Part shown: positions 6,775 through 56,276 of the stretch, piece by piece
Numbering within the stretch: position 1 is the stretch's first letter
Layout: each line of letters opens with the position of its first letter
Origin: an uncultured Gammaproteobacteria bacterium
GTDB lineage: Bacteria; Patescibacteriota; Microgenomatia; Levybacterales; GWA1-39-11
Direction: 5' to 3'
DNA length: 64,000 nucleotides
Assembly (NCBI GenBank): GCA_964472415.1
Contig: CAYYLC010000003.1
Location: forward strand, 96,075-160,074
The notes under the pieces: model-generated
Told to the model about the DNA's origin: nothing
Database searches by the model: none
What the model saw: only the letters and a program-made list of their open reading frames with translations
Position numbers and translations under genes: made by a program

Positions 6775-6851
6775 ATTGAGATTAATTTTTAACTATTAGG
6801 TTCAGATTTTCAGATATTTTATAATTTGTATTTATCATAATTTTCACATTG

Positions 6852-11300: not shown

Positions 11301-11327
11301 GATGGAATATCATGGTATGATAATTAT

Positions 11328-11762: not shown

Positions 11763-11811
11763 AAAATTATGGGTTTAGAGTGGAGAATTGGAAATTAGAA
11801 TTACATGAAAA

Positions 11812-12396: not shown

Positions 12397-12398
12397 TA

Positions 12399-12896: not shown

Positions 12897-12897
12897 A

Positions 12898-13446
12898 ATG
12901 AGAGATAGTCGTGGATATACTGTCGTGGAGCTTCTTGCGGTAGTAACGATTCTCGTTCTCATAACTGGCGTTGTTGCAGCGCTTATAACTCAGACTTTAC
13001 GTGGGACTAGTAGAACAAAAATAACGAATCAAGTTGCTCAAGCTGGAAGCTATGTTACGAGTGTAATCTCCGCGAGTGTAATCTCCGCAGAGAATATTGT
13101 CTCCATAAATGGACAGGAGATCGTGGATTGTACTGGAAATCCTTCTGGACAATCTATTGAGATCTTTATGTCTGAAGAGCGAGGGGTTATAGAATATGCG
13201 TGCATGGATGACACGATCGCTTCTGGGAGCGTTTCTTTGATAGATACTAATAGTTTGCGTATAGATACGACAAATCAGAACGCCTGTTACTTCCGATGTT
13301 CACAGCCGCCGGATGACCCCTACTCTCCTCCATTTATCGAGTTCGGATTTACTATAACGCAAAAAAATGAGAATGTACTTTTTGAAAACCGAGAATCGGC
13401 ACCATTTCAGACTTCTGCATTGATGCGAAATTATCACCCAAATTAA
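12898..13446 (+). CDS. minor pilin (prepilin-type N-terminus)
   Basis: ATG at 12898 gives MRDSRG|YTVVELLAVVTILVLITG. The ORF-track start at 12823 overlaps the upstream gene; 12898 is in the same frame and directly follows its stop. Confidence 0.65.
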   Translation: MRDSRGYTVVELLAVVTILVLITGVVAALITQTLRGTSRTKITNQVAQAGSYVTSVISASVISAENIVSINGQEIVDCTGNPSGQSIEIFMSEERGVIEYACMDDTIASGSVSLIDTNSLRIDTTNQNACYFRCSQPPDDPYSPPFIEFGFTITQKNENVLFENRESAPFQTSALMRNYHPN

Positions 13447-13501
13447 CCTCTATTTTCCTTGACTTTGAATCTCTGAGCACGCTATTATAAAAGTAGTAGT
13501 T

Positions 13502-14338
13502 ATGTATCACAAAAGCTCAGAGCGTGGACAAATTCTCCTTATTGTGGTGATTACTATGATTGTAGCGCTCACTGTTGGGCTTTCAATTGCTGCGCGGACA
13601 GTTACTGAATTACGCCTTTCTCGTCAGAATGAAGAATCACAGCGTGCGTTTAATGCGGCAGAGGCTGGGATAGATAGGGTTTTGCAAGAAGGTGGAGAGA
13701 TTGTTCTCAGTCAGGAGCTTGGAAATAATGCAGATTTTCAAGTAAGCGCAGTTGAATATGCTGGGGCGCAGTTGATGCTTAATAATGGTGATATTGTGGA
13801 TCAAGATGTGGGAGCTGATGTATGGCTTTCAAGTTATCCAGACTATACAGATCAAATTGCAAATGCACAGCTTTCGATTTATTGGGGCGGAGAGGATCAG
13901 GTGAATTGTACGGCTACTTCAGAAGTTCGCCCTGCGCTTGAGGTTGTAGTTCTTCAGGGGAATGTATTAAATCCTACCATTGAGAAATATTTATATGACA
14001 CGTGTCCTACGAATTCGCGAACGCTTGGAACACTTATGGGAAGTAGTTATGATGTCTATACGGTTGCAGGGATTCCTGGACAGACATTTCGAAATCGTAC
14101 CAGTGCACCAATCTCTATAACAAATGGAATTATCATGAAAATTATTCCGCTTTATAACTCGACAAAAATTGCAGTGGTTGCGACGGATTCTTCAGGAACG
14201 CCCTTAGCGCTCCCTTCTCAGGGCTCGGTGATTGAATCTACTGGTACATCTGGTGAAACGATTCGAAAAATTACTTACTATCAATCGTATCCCCAGCTGC
14301 CACTTGAGGTATTCCCATATAGTATTATTTCACAATGA
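13502..14338 (+). CDS. PilX-like minor pilin
   Basis: N-terminal hydrophobic helix ERGQILLIVVITMIVALTVGL followed by RAFNAAEAGIDRVL, resembling the PilX N-terminal domain. Confidence 0.55.
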   Translation: MYHKSSERGQILLIVVITMIVALTVGLSIAARTVTELRLSRQNEESQRAFNAAEAGIDRVLQEGGEIVLSQELGNNADFQVSAVEYAGAQLMLNNGDIVDQDVGADVWLSSYPDYTDQIANAQLSIYWGGEDQVNCTATSEVRPALEVVVLQGNVLNPTIEKYLYDTCPTNSRTLGTLMGSSYDVYTVAGIPGQTFRNRTSAPISITNGIIMKIIPLYNSTKIAVVATDSSGTPLALPSQGSVIESTGTSGETIRKITYYQSYPQLPLEVFPYSIISQ

Positions 14339-15366
14339 AAAGTAACTCGTTTGGTTTAGACATAGGAAGCACTACGATAAAAGCGGCGAAATTCCGCAAA
14401 AGCGGAAGTGGAATAGAGATTGAGGCGATCGGTATGGGCTCGTCTCCTGAGAGGGGAATATTGTCTGATTCTCAGGGTGATTTAGACGCACTATCCCGTC
14501 GTATCAAAGAGATTATTACAGAAGCAAAAATTTCCGCATCAGAAGTTTCAGTTTCTCTGCCGGACAATCAAGTTTATACGAAAATCATTGATATGCCACC
14601 GCTTTCCGAGCGAGAACTTTCTGCATCTCTGAAGTATGAAATGGAGCAATATATTCCGCTTCCACTCGAGCAAGTAAGAACAGATTGGCAGATTTTAGGA
14701 ACAAGCACGAAAAATGGTCAGTCTTTGACGAGTGTGTTTCTTGTAGCAGCACCCCTTACTCTTTTAGATAAATACGAAAAAGTAATTGAGCATGCAGGAT
14801 ATTTTGCAGCAGGTATTGAGACAGAGATGATCTCAGTGTATCGAGCGCTCTACCCGCTCTTACATAATCCAGCACCAAGTGTTGTGGTTCATATGGGGGC
14901 TACCACGACGAGCATTTCAGTAATAAAGAATGGGGTGATTCTTATGGTCTTTACTATTGATCAGGGAGGACTTTCTATAACTCGCGCAATTTCCTCAGAT
15001 TTAGGGATTGATATCACTCAAGCAGAGTCATTTAAGAAAGTATATGGGCTCAATAAGGAAACGTTTGAAGGGAAGATTGGGAAGTCCCTTTTCCCGATTC
15101 TGGATTCTATTATGGGAGATGTTCGAAAGGCGATGTTGATGTATCGTGAGAAATCAAATAACGAAGAAATCAATCAAATCGTTTTATCCGGTGGTACTGC
15201 ACAGCTTCCGGGAATTGATGTGTATTTTACGAATCAGTTAAGTATCCAGGTGGTTTTGGGAAATGCGTTCCAAATTTATAATATAGGAAAAGTTCCTGAT
15301 GAGTTACTTCGTGAAGCACCATCCTTTAATACTGTTGTTGGACTTGGGATAAAAGAGCTTGTATGA
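14335..15366 (+). CDS. pilM: type IV pilus assembly protein PilM (actin-like ATPase)
   Basis: 343 aa; FGLDIGSTTIKAA N-terminus and actin/FtsA fold motifs (GGTAQLPG); overlaps both neighbouring genes by 4 bp. Confidence 0.85.
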   Translation: MKSNSFGLDIGSTTIKAAKFRKSGSGIEIEAIGMGSSPERGILSDSQGDLDALSRRIKEIITEAKISASEVSVSLPDNQVYTKIIDMPPLSERELSASLKYEMEQYIPLPLEQVRTDWQILGTSTKNGQSLTSVFLVAAPLTLLDKYEKVIEHAGYFAAGIETEMISVYRALYPLLHNPAPSVVVHMGATTTSISVIKNGVILMVFTIDQGGLSITRAISSDLGIDITQAESFKKVYGLNKETFEGKIGKSLFPILDSIMGDVRKAMLMYREKSNNEEINQIVLSGGTAQLPGIDVYFTNQLSIQVVLGNAFQIYNIGKVPDELLREAPSFNTVVGLGIKELV

Positions 15367-15902
15367 AAAATTCCATAAATCTTGTTTCAAAACGGCAGGC
15401 GCCGAACCGTTTTCATAAGCGATTTTTTATAGCTGGATTGAGTTTTTTTTCTGTAACCTTTCTTCTTTCAGTAGGAGTTATTGGATATCAATTTCTGCTT
15501 TCAGAACAACTTGCCACGCTTAAGTCTGAAGAATCCGTACTGATTTCCCAAGTAAATAGTGATCCGGAGAAGAAAATAAAGTTTTTGACAATTCGTGAGC
15601 GACTAACTGAGATACAAAAAGTTATAGCGCGTCGCCAAGATGTCAATTCGCGGATCAATGCGATATCAGAAGTGGTTCCTGGAGATATTGGAATTAATGT
15701 TATAGAGGGTGATGAAGAGGAGATGCGGGTGCGAGTAGCTGCTGATAATCTGTCTTCTTTGAATAACTTGATTGAGGAACGGATTGAAGAGTTTGCGTTG
15801 GAGCAAGGAAAAACAGTTAAAAGGATTGAGATGACAAGTTTTGGCCTTAACTCTAACTCACTCCTGTACGAGGCGACATTTGTGATAGAGTTTAATTCAT
15901 AA
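15363..15902 (+). CDS. pilN: PilN-like bitopic inner-membrane protein
   Basis: 179 aa; single N-terminal TM segment then a coiled-coil/periplasmic domain; position between pilM and pilO. Confidence 0.6.
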   Translation: MKNSINLVSKRQAPNRFHKRFFIAGLSFFSVTFLLSVGVIGYQFLLSEQLATLKSEESVLISQVNSDPEKKIKFLTIRERLTEIQKVIARRQDVNSRINAISEVVPGDIGINVIEGDEEEMRVRVAADNLSSLNNLIEERIEEFALEQGKTVKRIEMTSFGLNSNSLLYEATFVIEFNS

Positions 15903-42655: not shown

Positions 42656-42726
42656 TGCCGAGTCGTCTAATGGTAGGACAACGGACTTTGGATCCGTTTA
42701 TTCTGGTTCGAATCCAGGCTCGGCAG
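42656..42726 (+). tRNA. tRNA-Gln (anticodon UUG)
   Basis: tgccgagtcgtctaatggtaggacaacggactttggatccgtttattctggttcgaatccaggctcggcag: U1-A72 first pair and 3-bp D-stem typical of bacterial tRNA-Gln; anticodon loop ctTTGga. Confidence 0.8.
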
Positions 42727-44409
42727 CATGATTCTACTGATAGGCTGATAATCGATCAAATTGCTTGTTATTACGGCCTTTTCTGTAGGTTCTAACGCAA
42801 ATATAATGTCCTCGATTTCTCTCTTTGCTTTCTCTATAAGAAAATATGGCCTATCTCCTGAGATTTGGAGGCTTCGATCTAGAATTGTTAGGTTCGAACC
42901 AAGTTTTGACAAAATATAGGTTTTGGTTCTAACGTCACCTGTTTCAAACTGATATTTGGCACTGCAAGCGAAGTTAAATGTCTCTTTTGACTGGAAATAC
43001 CACTCCTCTTGTTTCTTGTCCACTGAGTCAATTTGCTTCATGACATCTTTTCTCTCTTTTAGTAGTCTTTCTTCCTCATCATCGTAGAACTTCTGCATTT
43101 CAGTACCATTCGTGACGTTTTCTCTTGAGATTCTAAGTCTCGTAAGCCGCGCAAGCGCTTTATCACAGTTTTCCATCTGTTTTACAAGGTTTTCTTTAAT
43201 ACTTCTAATGTCTGTTTCTTCTTTATCATTTAGTTCATTTAAGTGATCTATGCACCAATCGCGGAACTCTTCCGTTAATTCAAATTTGTTAAGCTCTGTT
43301 TTGATCTTATCTTCAAGATTTTTCAGTGTCACACTACCTTGAGAACAAGTCTTAGTAACTCTTTTTGTGCAGTGGTAGAACACATAATGCAGCAACTTTG
43401 GATTTTTCATTTCCTCAATTAAAGTGCCACATTTAGGACAAGCATTTGTCAGTTTTCCTTTATGGAACTTTTGCTTACAAGTTGAGCAGATTATTTGCAT
43501 CTTTTCCTCAGCAGTCACACTTCCGTCACATTCACCACATTTGAGAACATGCTTATATGCGAATTCATGTCGTGCCATACGTGGCTTGCCTTTGCGTCCT
43601 AAACGCACCTGTAGTGTGTCAAATTCATCTTCAGTGAGCATTGGCTTATGTGTTCCAAATACTTCTCCTTCAGATCGCACCATGAGGCCATAATAGTAAC
43701 TATCTGTGAGGATTCTGTACCATCCAGATTTTGCCATTGGCAAACCGCCTTTACTTCCTCTTGCTCTTGATCTAAATTTCCATTTGTTATTTAGAACATC
43801 TAATGCTTCCATTGGAGTATAAGTTCCATCAATAATCAATCTCATTGCATTTTGCAGTAATGGAAATCTTTCCTCATCCACGCCTATTTTCTTTTCCTTG
43901 GTGGCTTCATCATAGTAGTTGAAGTATCCTGGCTTGGCAGGGCCGATCCATTTTTTAAGGTTGTGGAATATGTAATGGTTACCACGCTTCACATTCTTAC
44001 TCAGATTCCTGGAGTATTGGTTTGCCATTCCAAAATGAATTTGCAGAATAAGGTGATCTGAATCCTGTGTGTATCTTTCACCGTCAGTACTTCGAATTTC
44101 TTGAAGCTTTCCATCTTGTAACAGCTGGAGAAGATGTCCACCTTCCATTGGATTGCGGCACAGTCTGTCTGGCTTCCAAGTAAGAATTGCATTTATCTTA
44201 CGAGCCTCAATGAGTTCAATCATTTTTGTGAACTCTGGCCTATTGTTTGGCTTATATGCAGATTTTGACTCTTGGAAGATATGAGTAACTGTCAAATTGT
44301 CTCTATCAACTGCTTTTTTACACTCCTCATTCTGCTCGTTAATAGACATCGCCTGTTTCTCTTTTGACTCTGATGACTTTCTTGAATATTGTGCGTATAC
44401 TAGTTTCAT
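42667..44409 (-). CDS. large serine recombinase (resolvase/invertase N-domain, recombinase domain, zinc ribbon)
   Basis: 580 aa; N-terminal catalytic region VYAQYSRKSSESKEKQ...IDRLCR; CGECDGS...CSTC and CPKCG zinc ribbon; coiled-coil C-terminus. The 3' end of the ORF runs into tRNA-Gln on the opposite strand. Confidence 0.8.
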   Translation of the reverse strand: MKLVYAQYSRKSSESKEKQAMSINEQNEECKKAVDRDNLTVTHIFQESKSAYKPNNRPEFTKMIELIEARKINAILTWKPDRLCRNPMEGGHLLQLLQDGKLQEIRSTDGERYTQDSDHLILQIHFGMANQYSRNLSKNVKRGNHYIFHNLKKWIGPAKPGYFNYYDEATKEKKIGVDEERFPLLQNAMRLIIDGTYTPMEALDVLNNKWKFRSRARGSKGGLPMAKSGWYRILTDSYYYGLMVRSEGEVFGTHKPMLTEDEFDTLQVRLGRKGKPRMARHEFAYKHVLKCGECDGSVTAEEKMQIICSTCKQKFHKGKLTNACPKCGTLIEEMKNPKLLHYVFYHCTKRVTKTCSQGSVTLKNLEDKIKTELNKFELTEEFRDWCIDHLNELNDKEETDIRSIKENLVKQMENCDKALARLTRLRISRENVTNGTEMQKFYDDEEERLLKERKDVMKQIDSVDKKQEEWYFQSKETFNFACSAKYQFETGDVRTKTYILSKLGSNLTILDRSLQISGDRPYFLIEKAKREIEDIIFALEPTEKAVITSNLIDYQPISRIMLPSLDSNQNKRIQSPLSYH

Positions 44410-45960: not shown

Positions 45961-46210
45961 CTTTATTTTACTTGATGGGGGTGGCCATTTTACATGGAAG
46001 GATTATAACCAATTTGGTTAGATGCCTCTAAAATTTGCACCTATGCTGGTTAATATCTCAGCTTATGTAGAGTACCAAAGAATATTTATGCAGAGATATA
46101 AAAGCAGCATGTGAGCATTTGCTCTTACTCTTTTCATTTAAGGCTAGGAACTCTTTCAAGACTCTCTGTTATTAGAGGAAATCATTATTTCTAATAGGTG
46201 AATTATCTAC

Positions 46211-46234
46211 TTTTAATCAGGAATGATGGAATGT
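46211..46234 (+). repeat. island motif copy ttttaatcaggaatgatggaatgt
   Basis: Its ATGATGG provides the ATG of the 46223 Xis-like ORF. Confidence 0.5.
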
Positions 46235-46480
46235 TTAATCTCTGGTATTTTGATGTTCAATTTAGTACAATTAAGCTCAACTAATATGAACGCAGAGCTT
46301 GAAGAGCTTATATCTATCCAAGAGGCAGCAAGGATTTTGAATGTCAACGTTCAAACTCTGAGGAGATGGGACAGAACAGGTGTTCTCAAAGCAGTTCGTG
46401 TAGGTACTCGGAAAGGTGTTGGTGACAGACGATACCGCAAGAGTGATATTGAGGCTTATTTGTCACGAAATAAAAAATAA
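46223..46480 (+). CDS. excisionase/MerR-like HTH DNA-binding protein
   Basis: ISIQEAARILNVNVQTLRRWDRTGVLKAVRVGTRKGVGDRRYRKSDIEAYL is a helix-turn-helix of the Xis/MerR (HTH_17) type. Start could be the internal MNAELEE at 46289. Confidence 0.6.
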   Translation: MMECLISGILMFNLVQLSSTNMNAELEELISIQEAARILNVNVQTLRRWDRTGVLKAVRVGTRKGVGDRRYRKSDIEAYLSRNKK

Positions 46481-46504
46481 GCACCAAAGAGAATTAAGAA
46501 AATT

Positions 46505-47413
46505 ATGGCATTATTTACAATTACTAATAATAAGGCATCGAAAATTGCACCGATTAAAGTTGGGCTGGAGAAAGATGTACAAAAGATATTCGAAGAGAAT
46601 CTAAATGAGATTTTGAATATAACTTTTCTTGCCACTGAATACTCTACAAGTTTTGGAGGGAGAATTGATTCTCTCGGAATTGATAATAATGGTGCACCAG
46701 TCATTATTGAATATAAACGTAACCATAATGACAATGTAATCAACCAAGGCCTTTCATATCTTCGATGGTTACTAGATCATAAAGCAGATTTTGATGTATT
46801 AGCACATAAAGTAAATCCAGAAATTGAGATTGACTGGAATTCTCCACGAGTCATTTGTGTGGCTGAGAGTTATAACAAATTTGATCTGGATACTGTTGAA
46901 CTTCTTCCAATTAACATTGAACTTTTGAGATATAAAATTTATCAAAACAATCTCCTACTAGTAGAGCCAGAAACACAACAAAAAGTACGTATCTCAACCT
47001 CAAAAATTTTCAATAAAGAAAAACAAGAGAAATCAATTGGAGAAAAAGTCACTTACAAATTAGAGGATCATCTATCTGGTATCAGTTCGAAAGCAAAGGA
47101 AATATTTGAAGAGGTAAATGAAAAAATTGTTGCACTTGATGAGTCAATTATTGTTGAGCCAAAAGCGAAATATATTGCCTATAAATTGACAACAAATTTT
47201 GTTGATATTGTTGTAAAGCAATACGGCCTCAAAATTTTTCTAAATGTTCCAAGTGGTGAACTGAATGATCCTCATGGTATGGCACGTGATCTCACAAAGC
47301 CAAAACCTATTGGACACTGGGGTAATGGAGACTACGAAGTAAAAATTGAAACACAAGAGGATATAGAAAAAGTATTTGATCTAATCAAGCAAAGTTATTC
47401 ATTCAATAAATAA
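46505..47413 (+). CDS. PD-(D/E)xK-type nuclease (restriction-endonuclease-like N-domain with DUF5655-like C-terminal region), candidate R subunit
   Basis: GRIDSLGIDNNGAPVIIEYKR is a D...(D/E)xK core. The stop at 47413 lies 3 bp from the methyltransferase start (translational coupling). Confidence 0.5.
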   Translation: MALFTITNNKASKIAPIKVGLEKDVQKIFEENLNEILNITFLATEYSTSFGGRIDSLGIDNNGAPVIIEYKRNHNDNVINQGLSYLRWLLDHKADFDVLAHKVNPEIEIDWNSPRVICVAESYNKFDLDTVELLPINIELLRYKIYQNNLLLVEPETQQKVRISTSKIFNKEKQEKSIGEKVTYKLEDHLSGISSKAKEIFEEVNEKIVALDESIIVEPKAKYIAYKLTTNFVDIVVKQYGLKIFLNVPSGELNDPHGMARDLTKPKPIGHWGNGDYEVKIETQEDIEKVFDLIKQSYSFNK

Positions 47414-47415
47414 AT

Positions 47416-48504
47416 ATGAGTTCAAAATCATTAAATTCAAATTTACACAAAGCAAGTAAAGCAAAAAAGGATGAGTTTTATACTCAACTTACAGATATTG
47501 AAAAAGAGCTTCGACACTATAAAGATCAATTCAAAGGCAAAGTTGTTTACTGCAACTGTGATGATCCTTTCGAAAGTAACTTCTTCAAATACTTCGCTTC
47601 CAATTTCAACGCACTAGGACTTAAAAAACTAATAACTACTAGTTTTTCAGGCTCACCAATCACTGGAAAGCAACTTTCTCTATTGGACATGGAAGGACTA
47701 AAACCTAAAGGAAAACAGCCATTCAAGATTGAGATTACTAATGTACCAGACAAGAATACTGATGGTGCTATCGACTTAACAGATGTGGAATGGCTATTAA
47801 AACAAGACACGAATGTATCCACTCCTCTTAAAGAAAGCGGAGACTTTAGAAGTGAAGAATGTATAGACTTACTCAAGCAATCAGATATTGTGGTAACTAA
47901 TCCACCATTCTCACTCTTTCGAGAATATATTGCTCAACTTATTGAGTATGAAAAAAAGTTTTTGATTATCGGAAATTTGAATGGAATAAGCTATCAAGAA
48001 ATATTTAAGTTAATCCAAGGCAATAGGCTTTGGCTAGGTTACAATAATGGACACAAAACTTACTTAGTTCCAGATTATTATGAGCAAAAGAATATATATG
48101 TCGGTGAGGATGGTAAAAAGTATGCCAAAATGGGAAATACAGGATGGTTTACAAATCTAGATATTAGCAAACGTCACGAAATGCTTACTCTTTATAAAAG
48201 ATATAATCCGCAAGACTTTCCACAGTACGACAACTATGACGCAATTGAAGTATCAAAAGTATTAGAAATTCCGTTAGATTATAATGGCATTATGGGTGTG
48301 CCAGTAACATTTCTTGACAAATATAATCCAGAACAATTTGAAATATTAGGGATTACTGATAGAAATCCTAAGAGCAAATATAGAACAAAAATGTATACCA
48401 AGGCTGACTCACCAATGTATAACGACTTAAACAGACGTGCAGCAATTAAATTTGATGGTAAATTAAAACCTACATATGCTCGATTGCTGATAAAGAAAAA
48501 ATGA
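47416..48504 (+). CDS. N6-adenine (or N4-cytosine) DNA methyltransferase
   Basis: DEFYTQL N-terminal motif, catalytic motif IV VVTNPPFS (NPPF), candidate AdoMet-binding region KVVYCNCDDPFES. Confidence 0.7.
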   Translation: MSSKSLNSNLHKASKAKKDEFYTQLTDIEKELRHYKDQFKGKVVYCNCDDPFESNFFKYFASNFNALGLKKLITTSFSGSPITGKQLSLLDMEGLKPKGKQPFKIEITNVPDKNTDGAIDLTDVEWLLKQDTNVSTPLKESGDFRSEECIDLLKQSDIVVTNPPFSLFREYIAQLIEYEKKFLIIGNLNGISYQEIFKLIQGNRLWLGYNNGHKTYLVPDYYEQKNIYVGEDGKKYAKMGNTGWFTNLDISKRHEMLTLYKRYNPQDFPQYDNYDAIEVSKVLEIPLDYNGIMGVPVTFLDKYNPEQFEILGITDRNPKSKYRTKMYTKADSPMYNDLNRRAAIKFDGKLKPTYARLLIKKK

Positions 48505-48505
48505 T

Positions 48506-49609
48506 ATGAAAATTGAATTACACAAAATAAAAGTTCGTGAAGTGGTTGAAGGATACAAAGACAATGCTGAAGAAGGTGTTGTAGGATATGGTGGCGAACT
48601 TGATATTCGCCCTAAGTATCAGCGTGAATTCGTTTACAAAGACGCTCAGCGTGATGCAGTGATAGATACTGTCAAGAATGGCTTTCCTCTTAATGTCATG
48701 TATTGGGTAGTGCGTGAAGATGGTGGATATGAAGTCCTTGATGGACAGCAACGCACAATCTCGCTTGCACAATATGTAAATGGAGACTTTTCCATAGACT
48801 TTAATGGTAGGCTGGCAATGTTTCATAACTTAACTCCAGAAGAACAAAACCAGATTTTAGATTATGAGTTGATGATCTACTTTTGTGAAGGTACAGACAA
48901 AGAACGCCTTGATTGGTTTAGGATCATTAACATTGCTGGTGAGAAATTAACAGATCAAGAATTGAGAAATGCAGTATATACAGGGCCATGGCTTTCTGAC
49001 GCAAAACTTAAATTCAGTAAATCAAATTGCGTAGCATATCTTCTTTCAAATGACGGAGGTGCGTTACTCTCTGGATCACCAATAAGACAGGAATATTTAG
49101 AAACAGTACTTTCGTGGATCAATAATGGTGCAATTGAGGATTATATGGCACGTCATCAACATGATGAAAATGCCGATGAGCTATGGAATTATTTTCAAGA
49201 AGTAATCGCTTGGGTGAGAAAAACATTCTCAAACTACAGAAGAGAGATGGCAAGCGTGAATTGGGGTGAACTATACAATCAATTCAAGGATCATGAACTA
49301 AATCCTGAAAAACTGGAAGCTGAAATAAAAGTACTCATGCAGGATGAAGATGTTACAAAAAAGAGCGGTATTTATCCTTACGTTTTGACTCGTCTTGAAA
49401 AATATCTATCTATTAGAGCTTTTACTGACAAAATGAGACGAGAGGCATATGAGAGGCAAAATGGCGTATGTCCATTCTGCAAAAATAAATTTGAAATTGA
49501 AGAAATGGAAGCAGATCATATTACTCCATGGCATGAAGGTGGAAAAACAACTGCTGACAACTGTCAAATGCTTTGCAAACAAGATAATAGAACAAAATCT
49601 GGTGTGTAA
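48506..49609 (+). CDS. DUF262 (ParB/GmrS-like NTPase) - HNH endonuclease fusion, GmrSD-like candidate type IV or modification-dependent nuclease
   Basis: N-terminal DUF262 with DGQQRT motif; C-terminal HNH CPFCKNKFEIEEMEADHITPWHEGGKTTADNCQMLCKQDN. Start 2 bp after the methyltransferase stop. Confidence 0.65.
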   Translation: MKIELHKIKVREVVEGYKDNAEEGVVGYGGELDIRPKYQREFVYKDAQRDAVIDTVKNGFPLNVMYWVVREDGGYEVLDGQQRTISLAQYVNGDFSIDFNGRLAMFHNLTPEEQNQILDYELMIYFCEGTDKERLDWFRIINIAGEKLTDQELRNAVYTGPWLSDAKLKFSKSNCVAYLLSNDGGALLSGSPIRQEYLETVLSWINNGAIEDYMARHQHDENADELWNYFQEVIAWVRKTFSNYRREMASVNWGELYNQFKDHELNPEKLEAEIKVLMQDEDVTKKSGIYPYVLTRLEKYLSIRAFTDKMRREAYERQNGVCPFCKNKFEIEEMEADHITPWHEGGKTTADNCQMLCKQDNRTKSGV

Positions 49610-49656
49610 GTTGTATTGAATTAAAAATATGCTAAATCTGCCTATTATTACGAATA

Positions 49657-51273
49657 ATGAAAATATCGAAAATTATTGTTCAGAACTATAGATCAATTGA
49701 AAGGGTTGAGGTTAATCCAAGCAAATTTTCCATCTTTATCGGACAAAACAATCACGGCAAAACAAATTTCTTTGAGGCAATTGAATGGTTCTACAATTCC
49801 AAGTCATCAAATGAAGAAGAATATTGTAGAAAAGATTCAGACAATAAAATTCAAGTTGAGATAACTTTTGATGATGTTCTAGAAACAGACATTGAAAAAC
49901 TTACTTCTGATACCAATAAAACTAAAATTAGAAATATTTTGAATGGCTCTACTTCATTCTCTGTAATCAAATCAAGTACAGATCATAAAAGAAAATACTT
50001 TGTTAATGGTGAAGATAAAGGTAATCCTCAAGGACTAGACACTGCCATCAATGAATTTTTACCTAAGCTCGAATATGTTAATACTTCAATAAGATTAAAT
50101 GACGTTTCAAAATACAAAGACAGAAATCCTATTGGAACAATGCTTTCTGGCGTTCTCACTGCCATTATTGAAACATCACAAGACTACATTGAATTTAAGC
50201 AAACCTTCACAAAGTTATTTGACAATGCAGACTCAGAAGTTAGAAAAGAGCTTGATAAGTTAGGCGGACAAGTTGAAGTATATCTTCAGAAACAATTTCC
50301 AGGTGATACTAAGGTAAAGTTTGGTGTTAATCCACCTCATTTTACTGACTTATTAAAAAGTTTTGATACATCAATAAATGATGGAATTGAAACAACTGCT
50401 GAGGCAAAAGGTGATGGTATGCAAAGAGCAATAATGCTTTCAATTATCCAAGCATTTGCTGACTATCGTAAGAAGCAAATTGGTGGTGGAACTTTTCTGT
50501 TTATGATTGATGAAGCGGAATTGCACCTTCATCCAACTGCACAACGTTCTCTAAAGAATGCCTTATTAGACATATGTCAAACAGATCAAGTACTGGTAAA
50601 TACTCACTCCTCTGTTTTGGTTGTTGATAACAATGAACTTCAGAAGATTTTCAAGGTTGAAAAAACTGATGGAGTAACAAATATAGATGAGGTTGATGAT
50701 CTTGAGAAGATAAACATTATCTTCGAATTACTTGGTGGAAGTCCTTCCGATCTATTATTGCCAAGGAACTTTCTAATAGTAGAAGGAAAATGTGAATACG
50801 AATTCATCAAAATCATTATTGAACGTTATTATCGTGACAAATTTGATGGAATTAAGGTTTTATTTGCTGGAGGTGACTTGGATGAGCAAGAATCATCATT
50901 GCTCGCAGTCCACAAACTCTTTAATCCATTAGCTGGATCAGACAATCCAATTTATAAGGAAAGAGCTATTGTTTTAATAGACAAGCAAAATGGAGATCAG
51001 CAACATAAATTTGAAGCTTTTAAGCAAGGTTATCCTTATTTATTCAGCAATAATCATGTTTTTGAATTAACTACTACAACTCTGGAAGAATATTATCCAG
51101 ATGCATATAAGAAGAATGCTGCTGAGATCGCTCAACTGCAAGCAGACAGAAAAAAAGTTGAATATGCTAAAGAAGTTGCGTCAAAGATTACACAAGAGGA
51201 ATTTGAAAATGATATGCAGATAATATTCCAAGCACTTACTAAGTGTAATGAATGCGCTTTTAATCCGAAATAA
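49657..51273 (+). CDS. OLD-family protein: ABC/AAA_15-type ATPase with C-terminal TOPRIM-like nuclease region
   Basis: IVQNYRSIE...FIGQNNHGKTNFFEAIEWF (GxNxxGKT Walker A of the OLD/AAA_15 type), Q-loop region, Walker B/D-loop FLFMIDEAELHLHP, then FLIVEGKCEYEFI...VLIDKQNGD consistent with the TOPRIM conserved Glu and DxD. Confidence 0.7.
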   Translation: MKISKIIVQNYRSIERVEVNPSKFSIFIGQNNHGKTNFFEAIEWFYNSKSSNEEEYCRKDSDNKIQVEITFDDVLETDIEKLTSDTNKTKIRNILNGSTSFSVIKSSTDHKRKYFVNGEDKGNPQGLDTAINEFLPKLEYVNTSIRLNDVSKYKDRNPIGTMLSGVLTAIIETSQDYIEFKQTFTKLFDNADSEVRKELDKLGGQVEVYLQKQFPGDTKVKFGVNPPHFTDLLKSFDTSINDGIETTAEAKGDGMQRAIMLSIIQAFADYRKKQIGGGTFLFMIDEAELHLHPTAQRSLKNALLDICQTDQVLVNTHSSVLVVDNNELQKIFKVEKTDGVTNIDEVDDLEKINIIFELLGGSPSDLLLPRNFLIVEGKCEYEFIKIIIERYYRDKFDGIKVLFAGGDLDEQESSLLAVHKLFNPLAGSDNPIYKERAIVLIDKQNGDQQHKFEAFKQGYPYLFSNNHVFELTTTTLEEYYPDAYKKNAAEIAQLQADRKKVEYAKEVASKITQEEFENDMQIIFQALTKCNECAFNPK

Positions 51274-51276
51274 ATT

Positions 51277-52032
51277 ATGTCTCAATACTACAATCCAAAT
51301 CGAAAAAGAAACCTGTACGATCCTCACTCACCTGAGTTATTCCGCTTGAGTCGAGGAAAGATTGATAACTTCATCAATTGTCCACGGTGTTTTTATTTGG
51401 ACAGGCGTCTTGGTGTTGGACAGCCGCCAGGTTATCCATTTTCGCTCAATTCTGCAGTTGATAAGCTCTTGAAGAAAGAATTTGATGTTCATAGAGTAAA
51501 TGGCTCAAAACATCCACTGTGCGATAAATATGGTGTTGATGCAGTTCCGCTATCACACGATAAGATTGATGAATGGCGTGACTCTTTAAGAGGTGGAATT
51601 ACAGTTCACATTGACAGCACGAATGTTGTCATTACTGGTGGCGTGGATGATATTTGGATTTCACCAGAAGGTGAATACATTATTGTTGACTACAAGGCCA
51701 CATCTAAAGATGGTGAAGTATCACTGGATGCTGACTGGCAAATTGGATATAAGCGGCAAATGGAAATATATCAATGGCTTTTTAGGAAAAATGGCTTCAA
51801 AGTGGCTGATACTGGATATTTTGTCTACTGTAATGGAAATACTGACAAAGAAGCATTTGATGGAATGCTTGAATTTGAGATCAAACTCATTCCATACACT
51901 GGTAACACAGATTGGGTAGAAAAGACGATCCTGGACGCAATCAGGTGCCTCCAGAGCGATGTTTTACCTGAGCCTGGACAGGATTGTGACTTTTGTAAAT
52001 ACAGACAAGCTGTGAAGGAATTTGAAGATTAA
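51277..52032 (+). CDS. Cas4/RecB-like PD-(D/E)xK nuclease with four Cys (CxxC at each end)
   Basis: NCPRCFYLD (N-terminal CxxC), GGVDDIW...EGEYIIVDYKAT (D...E...DxK), KRQMEIYQWL (QxxxY motif of the RecB nuclease family), C-terminal CDFCKY. Start 3 bp after the OLD-like gene stop. Confidence 0.65.
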   Translation: MSQYYNPNRKRNLYDPHSPELFRLSRGKIDNFINCPRCFYLDRRLGVGQPPGYPFSLNSAVDKLLKKEFDVHRVNGSKHPLCDKYGVDAVPLSHDKIDEWRDSLRGGITVHIDSTNVVITGGVDDIWISPEGEYIIVDYKATSKDGEVSLDADWQIGYKRQMEIYQWLFRKNGFKVADTGYFVYCNGNTDKEAFDGMLEFEIKLIPYTGNTDWVEKTILDAIRCLQSDVLPEPGQDCDFCKYRQAVKEFED

Positions 52033-52139
52033 ATAGGGCTGGGTCGTGGTGAAAACACCACCTCGGCTTGTTCCGCTGACACCTTAAATCAATTTGCTAC
52101 ATCACGCCTCGCTGGTGTTTTTACCACATTTCTTAATAG

Positions 52140-52166
52140 TTTTAATCATAATGATGGAATTCATCC
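52140..52166 (+). repeat. island motif copy ttttaatcataatgatggaattcatcc
   Basis: Lies between the Cas4-like gene and the small membrane peptide gene. Confidence 0.5.
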
Positions 52167-52207
52167 TGTCATTTGAGATACTATTGAATAAGTAAGGAGG
52201 TGAAAGT

Positions 52208-52396
52208 ATGAATTTTAAGAAATTTGACATGATAGATATTGGATTCACTAAGCTTTCGGTTATGTGTTTCACTTTATTTGCTGTTTCTGCATTTCCAGGA
52301 CTCGCTGAATGGATCACAAACACATCTTGGATGCTATTTCTAGTCGTGAGCCTAGTATTTGCCATCAAACCAGTTATGAAGGTATTCAAGAAGTAG
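52208..52396 (+). CDS. small membrane peptide (62 aa)
   Basis: Strong RBS taaggaggtgaaagt-ATG; two hydrophobic helices; immediately upstream of the CPBP protease gene. Confidence 0.5.
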   Translation: MNFKKFDMIDIGFTKLSVMCFTLFAVSAFPGLAEWITNTSWMLFLVVSLVFAIKPVMKVFKK

Positions 52397-52420
52397 TTTT
52401 AATCAGAAATGATGAAATTG
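52397..52420 (+). repeat. island motif copy ttttaatcagaaatgatgaaattg
   Basis: 33 bp upstream of the CPBP protease start. Confidence 0.5.
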
Positions 52421-52452
52421 AACTGGTTTTGATATACTTTCATTATTAACAA

Positions 52453-53334
52453 ATGAAATTATCTAAGTATCAGCTACCTATTTTCTTCTTCCTTGCTTTT
52501 GCCATCACTTGGACTGCGCAAATCACAGCATATTTATATGCATTTCCAAACGACATAAATCTTACCAATGAATCCAATTTCCTAAATTTTGTGAATATTG
52601 GCGGTTTGCCGCCTGGCTTTCTTCCATACTTGCTTCTTTTCTCCTTCTCTTTCGGGCCAACGGTTGCTGGAATCATTGTTACTTACTGGTTTTATGGCAA
52701 TAAAGGCATGCGAGGAATACTTGATCAACTATTCGCGATTAGATTGCCTGGTAAATGGTATTTATTGGCAATAACAATTCCAGTTGGACTTGTACTTGCA
52801 AGCCTTTTGCTAGGCTTTGTCTTAAGTGGCTTTCAGTCAATTCAGTATGAGTTTCTTGTTCCATTGTCTCTATTTATTCCATTCTTCCTGTATATGACTA
52901 TATTTACAGGACTTGCGGAGGAAGTTGGTTGGCGAGGATATGCGCTTCCACAGCTTCAAAAAAAATATACTGCTGAGAAAGCAAGCTGGATATTAGGTAT
53001 TGCATGGGGACTTTGGCATTTACCTGTAAATCTGATGGTGCCATTTCTGTCAGGCAATTTACAAATACCATATATTGTGATGATCCTACTCGCGTTAACT
53101 CTTGGTATTGCAGGTTGGACAATTGTCCTTACATGGTTTTATAACAACACAAAGAGTCTCTTTCTCATCATATTCATTCATGGATTTATGAATACACTTC
53201 AGTCATATCTCATATTGTCCTCTAACAATCAGATTGCACCTATGCTTTATGGCATACTGCCATGGATAGTAGCAACATATCTTTTGAAAAAGTACGGAGG
53301 TAAGACACTATTGGTTCCTTCGAATAAACAGTGA
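52453..53334 (+). CDS. CPBP-family intramembrane glutamic protease (CAAX protease / Abi domain)
   Basis: Multi-TM protein with EEVGWRGY (EExxxR), FxxxH (LWHL) and HGFMN motifs. Confidence 0.75.
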   Translation: MKLSKYQLPIFFFLAFAITWTAQITAYLYAFPNDINLTNESNFLNFVNIGGLPPGFLPYLLLFSFSFGPTVAGIIVTYWFYGNKGMRGILDQLFAIRLPGKWYLLAITIPVGLVLASLLLGFVLSGFQSIQYEFLVPLSLFIPFFLYMTIFTGLAEEVGWRGYALPQLQKKYTAEKASWILGIAWGLWHLPVNLMVPFLSGNLQIPYIVMILLALTLGIAGWTIVLTWFYNNTKSLFLIIFIHGFMNTLQSYLILSSNNQIAPMLYGILPWIVATYLLKKYGGKTLLVPSNKQ

Positions 53335-53346
53335 AATTCAATAACT

Positions 53347-53802
53347 ATGAATATAAAAAGCCTTTGGAGTAAAATAAACAGTCGATTACAGAAACAGTGG
53401 ATTGCGTGCAGACTGGTATCAGATAGGAAAAGTGTTCAATATGGCATTCGCTTTAGCTATCCGCTCTTCATAGCAATTGTATTAATAAGTATATTTCTGG
53501 AAAATCCTTTTATATTACTATTTGCTGCTCTGATTGCTTTTTTTGGCATGAAATTACCATTACATCCTTTTGACTATGTTTATAGCTATGGAATTGCGAA
53601 GCTAATAGGAGTTAATAAAATACCTGGTAGAGGATCAGAGTTGCAGGTTAACAGTATTGTGGCGCTTATATTTACCTTGTTTGTAAGTGTTTTGATACTT
53701 TTTAGAGTTCCAATCAATTATTCTATGCTTGCTATTATTTATCTTGTGAGCAATATCTTCATACTTGGAATGTTCTTGATAAAGAAGGATTCAAGGAAGT
53801 AA
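53347..53802 (+). CDS. hypothetical polytopic membrane protein (151 aa)
   Basis: Four hydrophobic segments; follows the CPBP gene by 12 bp. Confidence 0.4.
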   Translation: MNIKSLWSKINSRLQKQWIACRLVSDRKSVQYGIRFSYPLFIAIVLISIFLENPFILLFAALIAFFGMKLPLHPFDYVYSYGIAKLIGVNKIPGRGSELQVNSIVALIFTLFVSVLILFRVPINYSMLAIIYLVSNIFILGMFLIKKDSRK

Positions 53803-53816
53803 TAAACCAAGTCGCT

Positions 53817-53912
53817 TTTAATCAGCAGTGATGGAATTCATCAAAAACTAGGCTGAAAAGCAGGTTGGAATGGTTGTTTTGTATTGATAAAATAGGTTCT
53901 AACAGCGTCTAC
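53817..53912 (+). repeat. ~95-bp direct repeat, left copy (ttttaatcagcagtgatggaattcatc ... aatggttgttttgtattgataaaataggttctaacagcgtct)
   Basis: Contains the island motif plus a second conserved block; a similar copy lies at 56008-56092 on the other side of the surface-protein gene. Confidence 0.6.
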
Positions 53913-53974
53913 TAGACACAGCTGAGTAAGCTTTCAAGCCTTGGTTACATTTGGCTAATCTAAAGAGGCATACT

Positions 53975-55924
53975 TTAACATCCTACCCTTAGTACTTGCC
54001 CTATGTTAAGAAGCGTAGAGCTTAGGTTATTTTTCTGCATTAAATCTGAGTATTTGGTACCTGATTCTAGGTTTTGGGAGGCGATAGTCCACAGATTGTC
54101 TCCTGGCTGCACCACATAATCCTGACATTCTTTTACAGACACTGTCGTTGCTTCCAGATCACCATTTCCACTGCCTGCATTAGTTACTCGTCTAGGAAAT
54201 ACAGACAAAATTCTCGATACAAAGTTTTTGTAATACGATGTTGCTTTTGATGACGAGTTACTCGTTGTTGCTGTCATTGTATTTCCCCACTCTCCAGGCA
54301 TGCAGCCGTTGCCACCTCTGACTACGAATGAATACTTAGAATTAGGAGATAAGGCATTAACAGTATACGAAAGCACTCCATTTGATACTCCTGTTTCAAA
54401 CTCTACTCCATACATATTAGTACTTTCTCCATTCCCATAAGCGATGAAGTACTTATGTGCATCTGATATAGGTGCAAAGTAAAGAGTGGCTTGTGTATTA
54501 TTCGTATCTATTTGGAAAAGATTAGGTGTGTTCAGTGGCCTAGTATCTGCGCACGTTGGAGCTGATGGTGAGGAAATGTCAGGTGACGAATTAGTGTTGT
54601 TTGATTGTAGTATAGGTTTGGGTGTAGGTGTACTGGTAGGTTCAGGTGTGGGAGTATTTGTCGGAGTTAGCGTTGGAGATGGAGTACCGGTTGGCGTTGG
54701 CGTCGGAGAATTTGTCGGTGTTGGGGTAGGTGTATTGGTTGGAGTTGGTGTGGGAGTAGTCTCAGGAGCGTCCTCTTCCAATGCAAATTTCAGATTGTTG
54801 TTGGTATTATCATAGTAGCTGATTCTGGCAAACCCGTCACTGCCCACCGCCAGAGAAGCGGGCAACCCTACATCTCCGTCTGCATCAACAATGCTGGTTT
54901 CTTTCTGTGTACAGTCATCATTAGCACATCTAATAAACTTGAGATCAGAGTTAGTATGATCTCGATAAGCTATCCTTGCATAGCCATCATCTCCTACTGC
55001 AATGGACGTATGTAGCCCTACAAATCCGTCTGAATCAAGGGTTGCAATATTACTTTCTGAACAATCAGCATTGGTGCATTGTGCAAATTTGAGATCGCCA
55101 TTTGTCCCATCATAGTAGCTGATTTTAGCAAAACCGTCACTGCCCATGGCAAGGGAAAGATGCGATCCTACGCCTCCTGAGTCAACAGTGGAGACATTTT
55201 TATTTGAACAATCGGCATTGGTGCATTGTAAAAATTTGAAATCATCAGTTATCTCATCGTAGTAGCTGATTCTGGCAAAACCGTCACTGTTCAAGGCAAG
55301 GGAGGAATAATATGGGTACGCACCTGAGTCAAGGGTTGCAACGTTACTTTCTGAACAATCGGCATTGGTGCACTGAGCAAACATCAATAGAGTATTCATG
55401 AATTCAAAATACAGAATCCGCGCAAAGCCGTCACTGCCCATGGCAATGGAAGGGTACCACTCCGTATTACGTTCAGGATCTATGGCGGTGACAGACTTTG
55501 ATGAACAATCGGCATTAGTACACGCGATTAAATACATCTCTTCAAATATAGATTTAGAATAGACGATCCGAGCAAATCCATCGTTACCCATGGCGAGGGA
55601 GTTATTTTGGACCTGTAATAACCCGCCCGTGTCAAACCACGATAATCCTGTGGCAACCGTGGTGATATTTTTTTCTGAACAATCGGCATTGGTGCACTGA
55701 ACAAATTTCAGCTCAGCAGTAACAAAGTCAGTATAGACGATCCGAGCAAATCCATCGTTACCCATGGCGAGGGAAATATCTTCTCCTATATCGCTAACCG
55801 AGTCAACAGCTTCAATTTTCCAGGCACTGGCGGCATTGACCGGCTGCGTAGGTAGAAACGAAGTACTCAAAAGTGAGATGAGAAAGAATGCTATGGTGAA
55901 AATGCTGAATAATTTTTTTTGCAT
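53975..55924 (-). CDS. secreted surface protein: signal peptide, seven ~47-aa CTNADCS repeats, Pro/Thr-rich linker, beta-rich domain, C-terminal LysM
   Basis: MQKKLFSIFTIAFFLISLLS signal. Seven repeats of consensus LAMGxDGFARIxYxDxxxxDLKFxQCTNADCSxxNxxTxDSxG. The 54590-54780 DNA is a PT-repeat (TPTPTPTNTPTPTPTNSPTPTPTG...). C-terminal YVVQPGDNLWTIASQ...LNIGQVLRV is LysM. Confidence 0.7.
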   Translation of the reverse strand: MQKKLFSIFTIAFFLISLLSTSFLPTQPVNAASAWKIEAVDSVSDIGEDISLAMGNDGFARIVYTDFVTAELKFVQCTNADCSEKNITTVATGLSWFDTGGLLQVQNNSLAMGNDGFARIVYSKSIFEEMYLIACTNADCSSKSVTAIDPERNTEWYPSIAMGSDGFARILYFEFMNTLLMFAQCTNADCSESNVATLDSGAYPYYSSLALNSDGFARISYYDEITDDFKFLQCTNADCSNKNVSTVDSGGVGSHLSLAMGSDGFAKISYYDGTNGDLKFAQCTNADCSESNIATLDSDGFVGLHTSIAVGDDGYARIAYRDHTNSDLKFIRCANDDCTQKETSIVDADGDVGLPASLAVGSDGFARISYYDNTNNNLKFALEEDAPETTPTPTPTNTPTPTPTNSPTPTPTGTPSPTLTPTNTPTPEPTSTPTPKPILQSNNTNSSPDISSPSAPTCADTRPLNTPNLFQIDTNNTQATLYFAPISDAHKYFIAYGNGESTNMYGVEFETGVSNGVLSYTVNALSPNSKYSFVVRGGNGCMPGEWGNTMTATTSNSSSKATSYYKNFVSRILSVFPRRVTNAGSGNGDLEATTVSVKECQDYVVQPGDNLWTIASQNLESGTKYSDLMQKNNLSSTLLNIGQVLRVGC

Positions 55925-56007
55925 AGCATAAAGGATGACTCATATTAAGTCTAACGATTATCACGTTTTTGAGTCAACCTTTTCAGGCAAATAAGCTAAT
56001 AAAAGGG

Positions 56008-56092
56008 ACATCATCAGGAACGATGGAAACCAAAAGAATACTCACAAAAATGGTTGTTTCATATTGATAAAATAGGTTCTAACACTGTCTGC
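56008..56092 (+). repeat. ~90-bp direct repeat, right copy (catcaggaacgatggaaacc ... aatggttgtttcatattgataaaataggttctaacactgtct)
   Basis: About 75-80 percent identical to 53817-53912; the block ATTGATAAAATAGGTTCTAACA is identical in both. Confidence 0.6.
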
Positions 56093-56276
56093 CAAGCACA
56101 ACAAAGCCCATCAACACCGCTGCTGTTTGTAATTTACGATACTGAAAAACTTCTGGAAATAGAATAGAATCATTCCATGACTACTTTTTCCTATTTATTA
56201 TAGGTAGCTTATTGTTACTCGTGTTTTTAATCTATCTATCATATTTCTAAATAGATAAATTAAGGAGGTGATACAT

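Follow-up and report, generated by a model that had tools for sequence, protein, structure and literature searches.

An OLD-family gene and a Cas4-like nuclease gene that adjoin in a Patescibacteria defence island: probably the end of an imported operon and a resident gene

A stretch of 64,000 nucleotides (nt) from an uncultured bacterium placed among the Patescibacteriota (assembly GCA_964472415.1, contig CAYYLC010000003.1, positions 96,075 to 160,074), referred to here in its whole length as the window, carries two forward-strand genes that are 3 nt apart. The first (49657-51273) encodes an OLD-family ABC-ATPase/Toprim protein of 538 amino acids (aa), and the second (51277-52032) a solo Cas4/RecB-like PD-(D/E)xK nuclease of 251 aa. 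An earlier note on this DNA had taken the two for a dedicated defence module, and the question raised by the locus is whether genes that stand so close form one system. The adjacent open reading frames (ORFs), their strand and their spacing were confirmed. The two genes are probably units of different history joined by the insertion of an island, namely an imported restriction-modification (R-M) operon with the OLD gene at its end and a resident Cas4-like nuclease gene. The interpretation in the note was partly supported overall, and the verdict was held at this level because distant OLD-family genes were enriched directly upstream of the nuclease.

A boundary in composition and synteny lies exactly at the nuclease start codon. 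The window genes between 44.4 and 51.3 kb had a guanine-cytosine (GC) content of 0.32-0.37, with 0.22-0.33 at third codon positions (GC3; 0.22-0.28 for the four genes from PDC-S18 to OLD). The OLD gene itself had a GC of 0.33 and a GC3 of 0.24, and the nuclease gene had a GC of 0.40 and a GC3 of 0.34, resembling the rest of the window. Across 50 loci the mean GC was 0.393 in the 4 kb upstream, 0.427 in the nuclease and 0.412 in the 4 kb downstream, with 0.377, 0.424 and 0.408, respectively, in the tightly linked loci (nuclease vs upstream, Wilcoxon p 1e-7). Homology in blastn between the window and nine related loci (surveyed loci carry L numbers here) began at 51268-51286, the nuclease ATG being at 51277, and extended downstream of the nuclease in L147, L152 and L156. 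Locus L072 had the methyltransferase (MTase), the restriction endonuclease (REase) and the nuclease in common with the window, and its OLD was only 26% identical; locus L011 had the OLD and the nuclease in common with the window, but not the intervening DNA. The nucleases next to an OLD gene did not form a lineage of their own, their nearest neighbours were nucleases without OLD and they had no distinctive residues, and an OLD-specific nuclease lineage or residue set was looked for and not found.

The site just upstream of the nuclease ATG is a docking position for variable, usually co-oriented and mostly defence genes. Clustering of the surveyed nuclease loci by blastp gave 57 clusters of upstream neighbours and 63 of downstream neighbours. 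Within 40 nt and on the same strand there were 43 distinct upstream genes, including six of the OLD family and three UvrD/GajB-like helicases, along with SMC-like ATPases, Shedu, GmrSD_N, reverse transcriptases, a Schlafen-type helicase, RhuM, Fic and KilA-N proteins, and a few housekeeping genes (SelR, cyclophilin, ROK). In the 43 loci where an upstream gene is tightly linked, 32 neighbour families were counted, and the 25 commonest of them included no cas family. The closest relatives of the window nuclease showed the same turnover: the one in L147 (94% identical) was preceded by an unknown 145-aa protein, the one in L148 (86%) by DUF4411 after an HTH_17 / GmrSD-SLFN / ResIII / MTase / M78 operon, and the one in L150 (85%) by GmrSD_N after a type I R-M system. 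Members of the same 90% nuclease cluster followed a type I R-M system with an HD protein (L152) or a type I R-M system with SLFN and GmrSD_N (L156). At the 90% level the nuclease cluster had 21 members vs three for the OLD. Defence hotspots flanked by core genes are known in Pseudomonas, E. coli and Vibrio. As in those hotspots, a conserved resident gene here marks a site of differing defence systems and the inserted DNA is AT-rich; the differences are that the boundary is the start codon itself, that the co-oriented inserts end 0-6 nt away, and that the anchor is itself a nuclease, which would be co-translated with the cargo.

As judged from its relatives, the nuclease is a resident, vertically inherited, slowly evolving and very conserved gene of Patescibacteria, also called the Candidate Phyla Radiation (CPR). 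At least 8000 cluster representatives were related to it, and the best 120 of these had 77-94% identity and were nearly all 249-259 aa long. With one genome taken per species, it was found in at least 556 genomes; the 80 that were kept (68-82% identical) came from Microgenomates lineages, WWE3, Parcubacteria lineages, Gracilibacteria, Peribacteria and Saccharibacteria. A neighbour-joining (NJ) tree of the taxonomically labelled nucleases separated Microgenomates plus WWE3, Parcubacteria, and Gracilibacteria plus Peribacteria, the exception being L058, which had been grouped with Microgenomates and fell among Parcubacteria. Distant relatives (47% identity) occurred in marine Chloroflexota, where the source labels them as Cas4/RecB family. 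Solo-Cas4 genes are common in CPR and DPANN, are mainly inherited vertically, have no arms-race signature and sometimes stand beside R-M genes (PMC5704561). The nuclease agrees with the description of that group as lying outside CRISPR loci, passing mainly by vertical descent and being over-represented in CPR and DPANN. The gene is not mentioned in the main text of a Patescibacteria transposon sequencing (Tn-seq) paper.

The OLD clade of the window has a different distribution and travels inside type I, II, IIG and III R-M operons, next to DUF2130, or alone. Many relatives of the window OLD were found at 43-84% identity, including those of Burkholderia pseudomallei (68%) and Roseovarius (65%), in both of which the gene stands alone in an island. 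The R-M settings comprised a place between HsdM/S and HsdR (L092), after type III Mod and Res (L011), after a type IIG enzyme (L024), before Eco47II (L096) and before type III Mod (L104, L110 and L134). About 45 loci with such a relative and its downstream flank were available, and the conserved nuclease was present in none; one of the OLD loci (L126) had a distant 225-aa PD-(D/E)xK ORF downstream. Only two nuclease loci, L011 and L024, carried the window-type OLD clade, and other genes intervened in both: L011 has GmrSD_N and an ORF of 93 aa in between, and L024 has DUF2130. The OLD relatives that are parted from the nuclease in this way were at 82% and at roughly 50% identity (the latter with 494 bits in phmmer).

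DUF2130, which belongs to the PD-(D/E)xK superfamily (PMC3424549), directly adjoined the window-type OLD in about 10 of 46 loci, on either side and often inside type III R-M operons. Examples are positions 7611-8810 of L095, 8827-9927 of L024, 3833-5116 of L104, 4124-5986 of L110 and 7619-8770 of L113. It is not included in PADLOC. As the partner in a real pair of an OLD and a nuclease, it is more promising than the Cas4-like gene.

The close spacing had been one ground for regarding the two genes as coupled partners. At the junction (51271-51279, forward strand) the TAA stop of the OLD gene is followed by 3 nt (ATT) and the nuclease ATG, with no Shine-Dalgarno (SD) sequence. The 3-nt gap is thus real, and its reading as partner-specific did not stand, since unrelated upstream genes also stop 0-6 nt before the nuclease ATG in many other loci. 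In the 40 nt upstream of the nuclease, an SD-like motif was found in 2 of 71 loci (L010-L089). Of 38 stand-alone loci, 13 had a -10-like (TATAAT-like) box at a distance of 5-13 nt from the ATG, vs 2 of 33 embedded loci and a background of 3.8%. This suggests that stand-alone nuclease genes give a leaderless mRNA. Operon-embedded copies would need termination-reinitiation for their translation; it is proposed that, because a leaderless nuclease gene, once embedded, could be translated only in this way, the upstream stop would be selected to adjoin the ATG. Translational coupling between the OLD gene and the nuclease gene is plausible, and would be the same for any upstream gene, hence it is no evidence of a specific partnership. 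No conserved DNA was found just outside the nuclease ORF in 74 loci, the information content being about zero before the ATG and after the stop, and a shared att site or other recombination site at this junction was therefore rejected.

By sequence and fold, the 538-aa protein is assigned to the OLD family as a new member of Class 1, the type of P2 Old and Thermus scotoductus OLD (TsOLD). Pfam AAA_15 matched it at 7e-31. The PADLOC models ranked Old first (2.3e-62), followed by AriA (1.5e-33) and GajA (1.5e-24), so the best match of the ATPase is the named single-gene Old model, which by the note's own criterion tells against a new two-gene system. The AlphaFold model (predicted local distance difference test, pLDDT, 71) gave full-length Foldseek alignments to GajA (4e-19), TsOLD 6p74 (2e-17) and the retron-Eco8 OLD, the top structural matches being GajA structures. 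In phage genomes P2 Old itself was the best match (E 2e-19). The OLD matches on plasmids and phages were all below 30% identity, and a phage or plasmid origin of either gene was rejected on this ground and on the absence of the nuclease from phage records.

The ATPase motifs were found as the earlier note had described them. Walker A (P-loop, G29-Q-N-N-H-G-K35-T36; 49741-49764, forward strand) was invariant in 26 homologues of 65-100% identity. The Walker B motif with the D-loop, LFMIDEAELHLHP (D285, E286 and H290/H292; 50497-50535, forward strand), falls in invariant columns and aligns to the GajA Walker B; IDEAELHLHP (D285/E286) and H317 were invariant in the same alignment. With Walker A, Walker B and an H-loop, this half of the protein has the features of the ABC-type ATPase of the family. 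The model and the alignment placed a Toprim-like domain at residues 371-470 (E376, E380, D407 and D442-K443, with E477 in addition; 50767-51066, forward strand), for which the model gave a beta-alpha-beta-alpha-beta-alpha-beta order. In all 26 homologues E376 (in IVEG) was invariant and the position of E380 was acidic; IVEG aligns with the Toprim Glu of GajA, and E376/E380 correspond to E377/D381 of TsOLD. The catalytic residues of TsOLD are E377, D381, D431 and D433, and its metal-B ligands include S478 and E480 (PMC7049728). The note's IVEG thus stood, and its naming of IDKQNGD as the DxD motif did not, the DxD position reading D442-K-P/Q across the clade with the second Asp missing. The Pfam model OLD-like_TOPRIM (PF20469) had no match in the protein, and the Toprim insert of about 50 aa of Class 2 was absent.

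Compared with the Class 1 enzymes (P2 Old, TsOLD, Vibrio cholerae OLD and E. coli YbjD), the window OLD is alike in its length of about 530 aa and in combining an ABC ATPase at the N-terminus and a Toprim-like domain at the C-terminus in a single chain. The best PADLOC match to Old, the best phage match to P2 Old, the full-length TsOLD alignment, the lack of the Class 2 insert and the stand-alone relatives also agree. Reviews describe Class 1 OLD as isolated genes away from defence genes (PMC10568477), whereas the window OLD and many of its relatives are in R-M operons or beside DUF2130, with no single conserved partner. A further difference is that D-K-P/Q in the window clade replaces the second Asp of DxD, and that OLD-like_TOPRIM does not match. 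Gabija (GajA and GajB, Class 2) is similar in that an OLD-type ATPase/Toprim is closely trailed by a second DNA-processing gene. It differs in that the downstream gene of the window is a 251-aa PD-(D/E)xK nuclease that matched only the PDDEXK_1 and Cas4 models and has no helicase domain. There was no UvrD-like gene in the operon and no helicase gene between 46 and 52 kb, and the GajA models were far below Old (1e-24 vs 2e-62). A retron OLD (Class 3) did not fit, as no RVT domain was found in the neighbouring genes, NF038234 retron_eff_Eco8 gave 58 bits vs a cut-off of 250, and the Rfam scan returned tRNAs only. PARIS (Class 4) did not fit either, because the ATPase and the Toprim are fused in the window protein, the AriA model was below Old, and no AriB-like neighbour was present.

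For the nuclease, Pfam PDDEXK_1 (4.7e-14) was the sole Pfam family reported. The PD-(D/E)xK core and the QxxxY motif that the note had named were invariant in the alignment as GVDD (D124/D125), VDYK (D138-x-K140) and QxxxY (Q161/Y165), so that the protein has the catalytic D...(D/E)xK and the QxxxY of RecB/Cas4-like enzymes with a restriction-endonuclease-like fold. The cysteine pairs at both termini were likewise invariant (C35xxC38 and C237xxC240). The cysteine pattern of Cas4 and AddB is 1+3. The pairs in this nuclease are arranged 2+2, and its TIGR00372 (Cas4) score was 36.7 bits vs a cut-off of 65, so the pairs were upheld and the likeness to Cas4 drawn from them was not. The four cysteines would form a metal or Fe-S site. 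No solved structure matched the nuclease at the sequence level, and no homologue of it was found in 50,697 phage records.

A CRISPR Cas4 did not fit, with the score below the TIGR00372 cut-off, a Pfam match to PDDEXK_1 and not to PF01930, and no CRISPR-like array in the window. The solo-Cas4 of small-genome prokaryotes (Hudaiberdiev et al. 2017, PMC5704561) is the nearest comparison. The shared points are a place outside CRISPR, occurrence in Patescibacteria, mainly vertical descent, a position sometimes beside R-M genes, the RecB motifs and four conserved cysteines. The window nuclease differs in matching PDDEXK_1 and not Cas4 proper (PF01930/TIGR00372), and in its 2+2 cysteines. From AddB, AdnA/AdnB, RecB, Dna2 and RecE/lambda exonuclease it differs as a stand-alone protein of 251 aa with no helicase fusion.

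The favoured account, an imported operon set before a resident nuclease gene, may be put in functional terms. The window OLD would have arrived by horizontal transfer, at the end of an AT-rich operon (HTH_17, PDC-S18, EcoRI-like MTase, GmrSD_N-HNH REase, OLD), where it would serve as a second-line nuclease beside the R-M pair formed by the MTase and the REase. By analogy with its relatives, ATP binding and hydrolysis by the ABC head would gate Toprim cleavage of DNA (nicking or exonuclease activity) or of tRNA. Class 1 OLD enzymes nick and degrade DNA (PMC7049728, PMC12392090), and P2 Old cleaves tRNA anticodon stems (PMC12445682). The nuclease would be a RecB-family exonuclease for metal-dependent processing of DNA ends from the 5' side in repair or recombination, and would possibly also clear restricted DNA.

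Several observations weigh against this account. With a broader OLD profile, the gene at position 1 upstream of the nuclease was OLD-like in 6 of 76 species loci. Farther away, OLD-like genes were found in 2 of 70 at position 2, in 1 of 64 at position 3 (3 of 362 for positions 2-8), in 0 of 228 beyond position 3 and in 0 of 483 downstream. The slot immediately before the nuclease was thus occupied by distant OLD subfamilies in excess of expectation (p ~0.001-0.003), and in multi-gene operons the OLD was the last gene in 7 of 10 vs 2.6 expected (p 0.0035), these statistics being soft, as related loci are counted repeatedly and the count is inflated. The OLDs adjacent to the nuclease spanned at least four subfamilies that were 22-29% identical to one another. 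Locus L158 held another adjacent pair, an OLD of the L054/L072 subfamily followed after 6 nt by a nuclease copy (6564-7281; 59-68% identity) that is broken by frameshifts, with a Shedu gene next. The L158 contig, on which Nitro_FeMo-Co and Fer4 genes are present, may come from an organism other than CPR. In L160, with another OLD of the same subfamily, the nuclease does not follow. The enrichment exceeds what neutral docking would predict, and a looser functional link between OLD and the nuclease is possible. The upstream genes were co-oriented with the nuclease in about 85% of loci, which a passive hotspot would not require. The nuclease was also sometimes inside an island, with a serine recombinase downstream in L003 and the Shedu gene downstream in L158, and one Gottesmanbacteria metagenome-assembled genome (MAG) had two nuclease copies (L030, L042). 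In the window itself, copies of a 22-nt motif, TTTTAATCAGnAATGATGGAAT, bracket the stretch from HTH_17 to the nuclease (46208-52138).

These points bear first on a less probable but serious alternative, in which the resident nuclease works with any defence operon docked upstream (R-M, OLD, Gabija-like, SMC-like, GmrSD, Shedu) and its cooperation with OLD is non-exclusive. Possibly, then, the nuclease is a fixed chromosomal component common to interchangeable, co-translated upstream defence operons, and the OLD enrichment would reflect real cooperation. By analogy with RecBCD after restriction in E. coli, it would degrade the DNA nicked or cut by the docked systems; in another form of the idea it would be a host end-processing nuclease, a guarded hub whose inhibition OLD-type proteins would monitor. 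Patescibacteria are not known to have RecBCD or AddAB. That mostly defence genes are upstream and co-oriented, with stops 0-6 nt from the ATG that imply co-transcription and translational coupling, speaks for this alternative, as does the OLD enrichment in the slot adjoining the nuclease. About a third of the immediate neighbours are NTPase-type proteins (OLD, SMC_N/AAA_23, UvrD, GmrSD_N, Schlafen helicase). The window OLD clade is often paired with another PD-(D/E)xK protein (DUF2130 or RmuC), and its Toprim DxD is incomplete. Fusions of UvrD with a Cas4-like PDDEXK_1 domain occur beside type III R-M, and solo-Cas4 beside R-M in DPANN archaea (PMC5704561). P2 Old, moreover, kills recB and recC mutant hosts (PMC7049728). 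On the other side, distant lineages have the nuclease alone with a promoter-like box, or after SelR, cyclophilin or ROK, and the nuclease sequence does not vary with the type of neighbour. Its strong conservation and vertical descent are housekeeping-like, with no arms-race signature (PMC5704561), and the upstream systems are complete, known and at work without such a nuclease in other phyla.

It is improbable that the nuclease is part of the backbone of an integrative element, from HTH_17 to the nuclease with a serine recombinase, and moves with its defence cargo. Such an element would fit the bracketing copies of TTTTAATCAGnAATGATGGAAT, the presence of a serine recombinase in the neighbourhood of the nuclease both in L003 and in the window, the MAG with two nuclease copies, the copy between OLD and Shedu in L158 and the duplication-flanked insertions downstream of the nuclease. 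The GC of the nuclease is, however, genome-like and that of the cargo AT-rich; the nuclease tree tracks taxonomy, and the L030 and L042 copies are sisters in it. Homology with close relatives begins at the ATG and not at an upstream element end, no flanking site is conserved, and the phage records are without a nuclease homologue. The motif, too, is missing from the 140-odd other loci, and in the close relatives L147, L152 and L156 its one copy stands after the nuclease.

The least probable reading, and a very doubtful one, is the dedicated pair of the earlier note, with the OLD and the nuclease as a specific complex and a new defence system. In its favour are the 3-nt junction, the lack of a PADLOC system joining the two and an OLD-family gene immediately ahead of the nuclease in seven further loci, among them L033 with an isolated pair. 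It was largely refuted by the co-occurrence survey, with its 57 upstream clusters, fewer than 10% of nuclease loci having any OLD and the roughly 45 OLD loci having no nuclease, as well as by adjacent OLDs of 22-29% identity beside nucleases of 70-80% with no partner-specific residues, by OLD relatives parted from the nuclease by other genes, by the exchanged OLD of L072 and by the break in composition and synteny between the genes.

The defence-island setting given in the note was confirmed. The island is AT-rich, holds HTH_17, PDC-S18, MTase, REase and OLD genes, and is next to a serine recombinase and a tRNA-Gln gene. The first gene of the operon (46223-46480) encodes a MerR/excisionase-like HTH_17 protein (Pfam HTH_17 8.6e-13, PADLOC mad1 2e-11). 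It is followed by the candidate defence protein PDC-S18 (46505-47413), with a NucS-like N-terminus and DUF5655 (PADLOC PDC-S18 3e-98, Pfam DUF5655 1.7e-12). Next come an EcoRI-like adenine methyltransferase of a type II R-M system (47416-48504; Pfam EcoRI_methylase 4.9e-142, PADLOC MTase_II 4.8e-124) and a restriction endonuclease with GmrSD_N (DUF262) and HNH domains (48506-49609; PADLOC REase_II 1.2e-143, Pfam GmrSD_N 2.3e-17, HNH 1e-12), all on the forward strand. As no terminator-like site was found between 45.9 and 52.5 kb, the operon probably extends from HTH_17 up to and including the nuclease gene. Homologues of HTH_17 head comparable operons in 9 of 99 nuclease loci and in the OLD-only locus L092. 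HTH_17 and the nuclease as a resident frame around cargo were considered and rejected, as HTH_17 also heads the R-M/OLD operon of L092, which has no nuclease, and occurs in so few nuclease loci. A domain scan of nine genes between 42.7 and 52.0 kb gave no cas domain. MADS (mad1-mad8) did not fit, with NF047739 MAD3 at 42 bits vs a cut-off of 420, PADLOC mad3 at 1e-15 and mad1 at 2e-11 for the HTH gene. Membership in MADS or Menshen was rejected, the matches to mad1, mad3, NsnA and NsnB being at the domain level only and far below REase_II, MTase_II and Old.

On the left side of the island there is a large serine recombinase (42667-44409, reverse strand; Pfam Resolvase 4e-20), the 3' end of which overlaps the tRNA-Gln gene (42656-42726, forward strand; ARAGORN, Rfam 62 bits). 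The tRNA-Gln gene as an attachment site, with a repeat at the far end of the island, was rejected, since no such repeat turned up between 42 and 54 kb. Directly after the nuclease stop there is a long hairpin (52046-52127, forward strand) with a span of about 82 nt and an outer stem of 15 base pairs (z = -2.2), which is kept in sequence in L147, L152, L156 and L157, the variation being too small for covariation. The 22-nt motif had four copies in the window (46208-46232, 52138-52160, 52394-52418 and 53814-53837), three of them found by pattern search vs 0.03 expected by chance and the fourth with a 1-nt indel; the HTH_17 gene begins within the first copy. No Rfam family matched the hairpin or the motif.

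About 200 nt of intergenic DNA that run uninterrupted in L156 (10022-10226) corresponded to three pieces of the window (52041-52165, 53816-53915 and 56049-56104), the ends of which overlap by about 27 and 47 nt. Such a pattern suggests a pair of insertions with flanking target duplications downstream of the nuclease, at 52166-53815 and 53927-56048. The former carries an uncharacterised 293-aa ORF, a membrane protein as predicted from its sequence, and a 151-aa ORF, and the latter a surface protein of 649 aa. The repeats of this secreted protein (53975-55924, reverse strand), about eight in number, contain a CTNADCS motif. The protein also has a linker rich in Pro and Thr and a C-terminal part that looked LysM-like by eye, and Tandem Repeats Finder gave an internal 147-nt repeat. 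Elsewhere in the window, the ORF listing showed a forward-strand gene cluster (9353-15902) with products that start with prepilin-type leaders (GFTLIELLVV). It probably encodes a type IV pilus-like apparatus, which would be expected in Patescibacteria.

In the literature searched, no description was found of the roughly 70% identity of the nuclease across Patescibacteria classes, of its place at the 3' limit of a defence region with variable, co-oriented genes, or of OLD enrichment in the slot that adjoins it. If the account of an imported operon joined to a resident gene is true, the pair should stay out of catalogues of new systems, and a false positive of guilt by adjacency would be avoided. 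The window OLD clade, found in R-M operons and beside DUF2130, is at odds with the definition of Class 1 OLD as isolated genes. The site before the nuclease would give Patescibacteria defence genes a docking place with one recognisable marker gene, which may be mined for new systems in a phylum that is nearly unculturable, and it offers a testable lead on the role of solo-Cas4 nucleases in small-genome prokaryotes.

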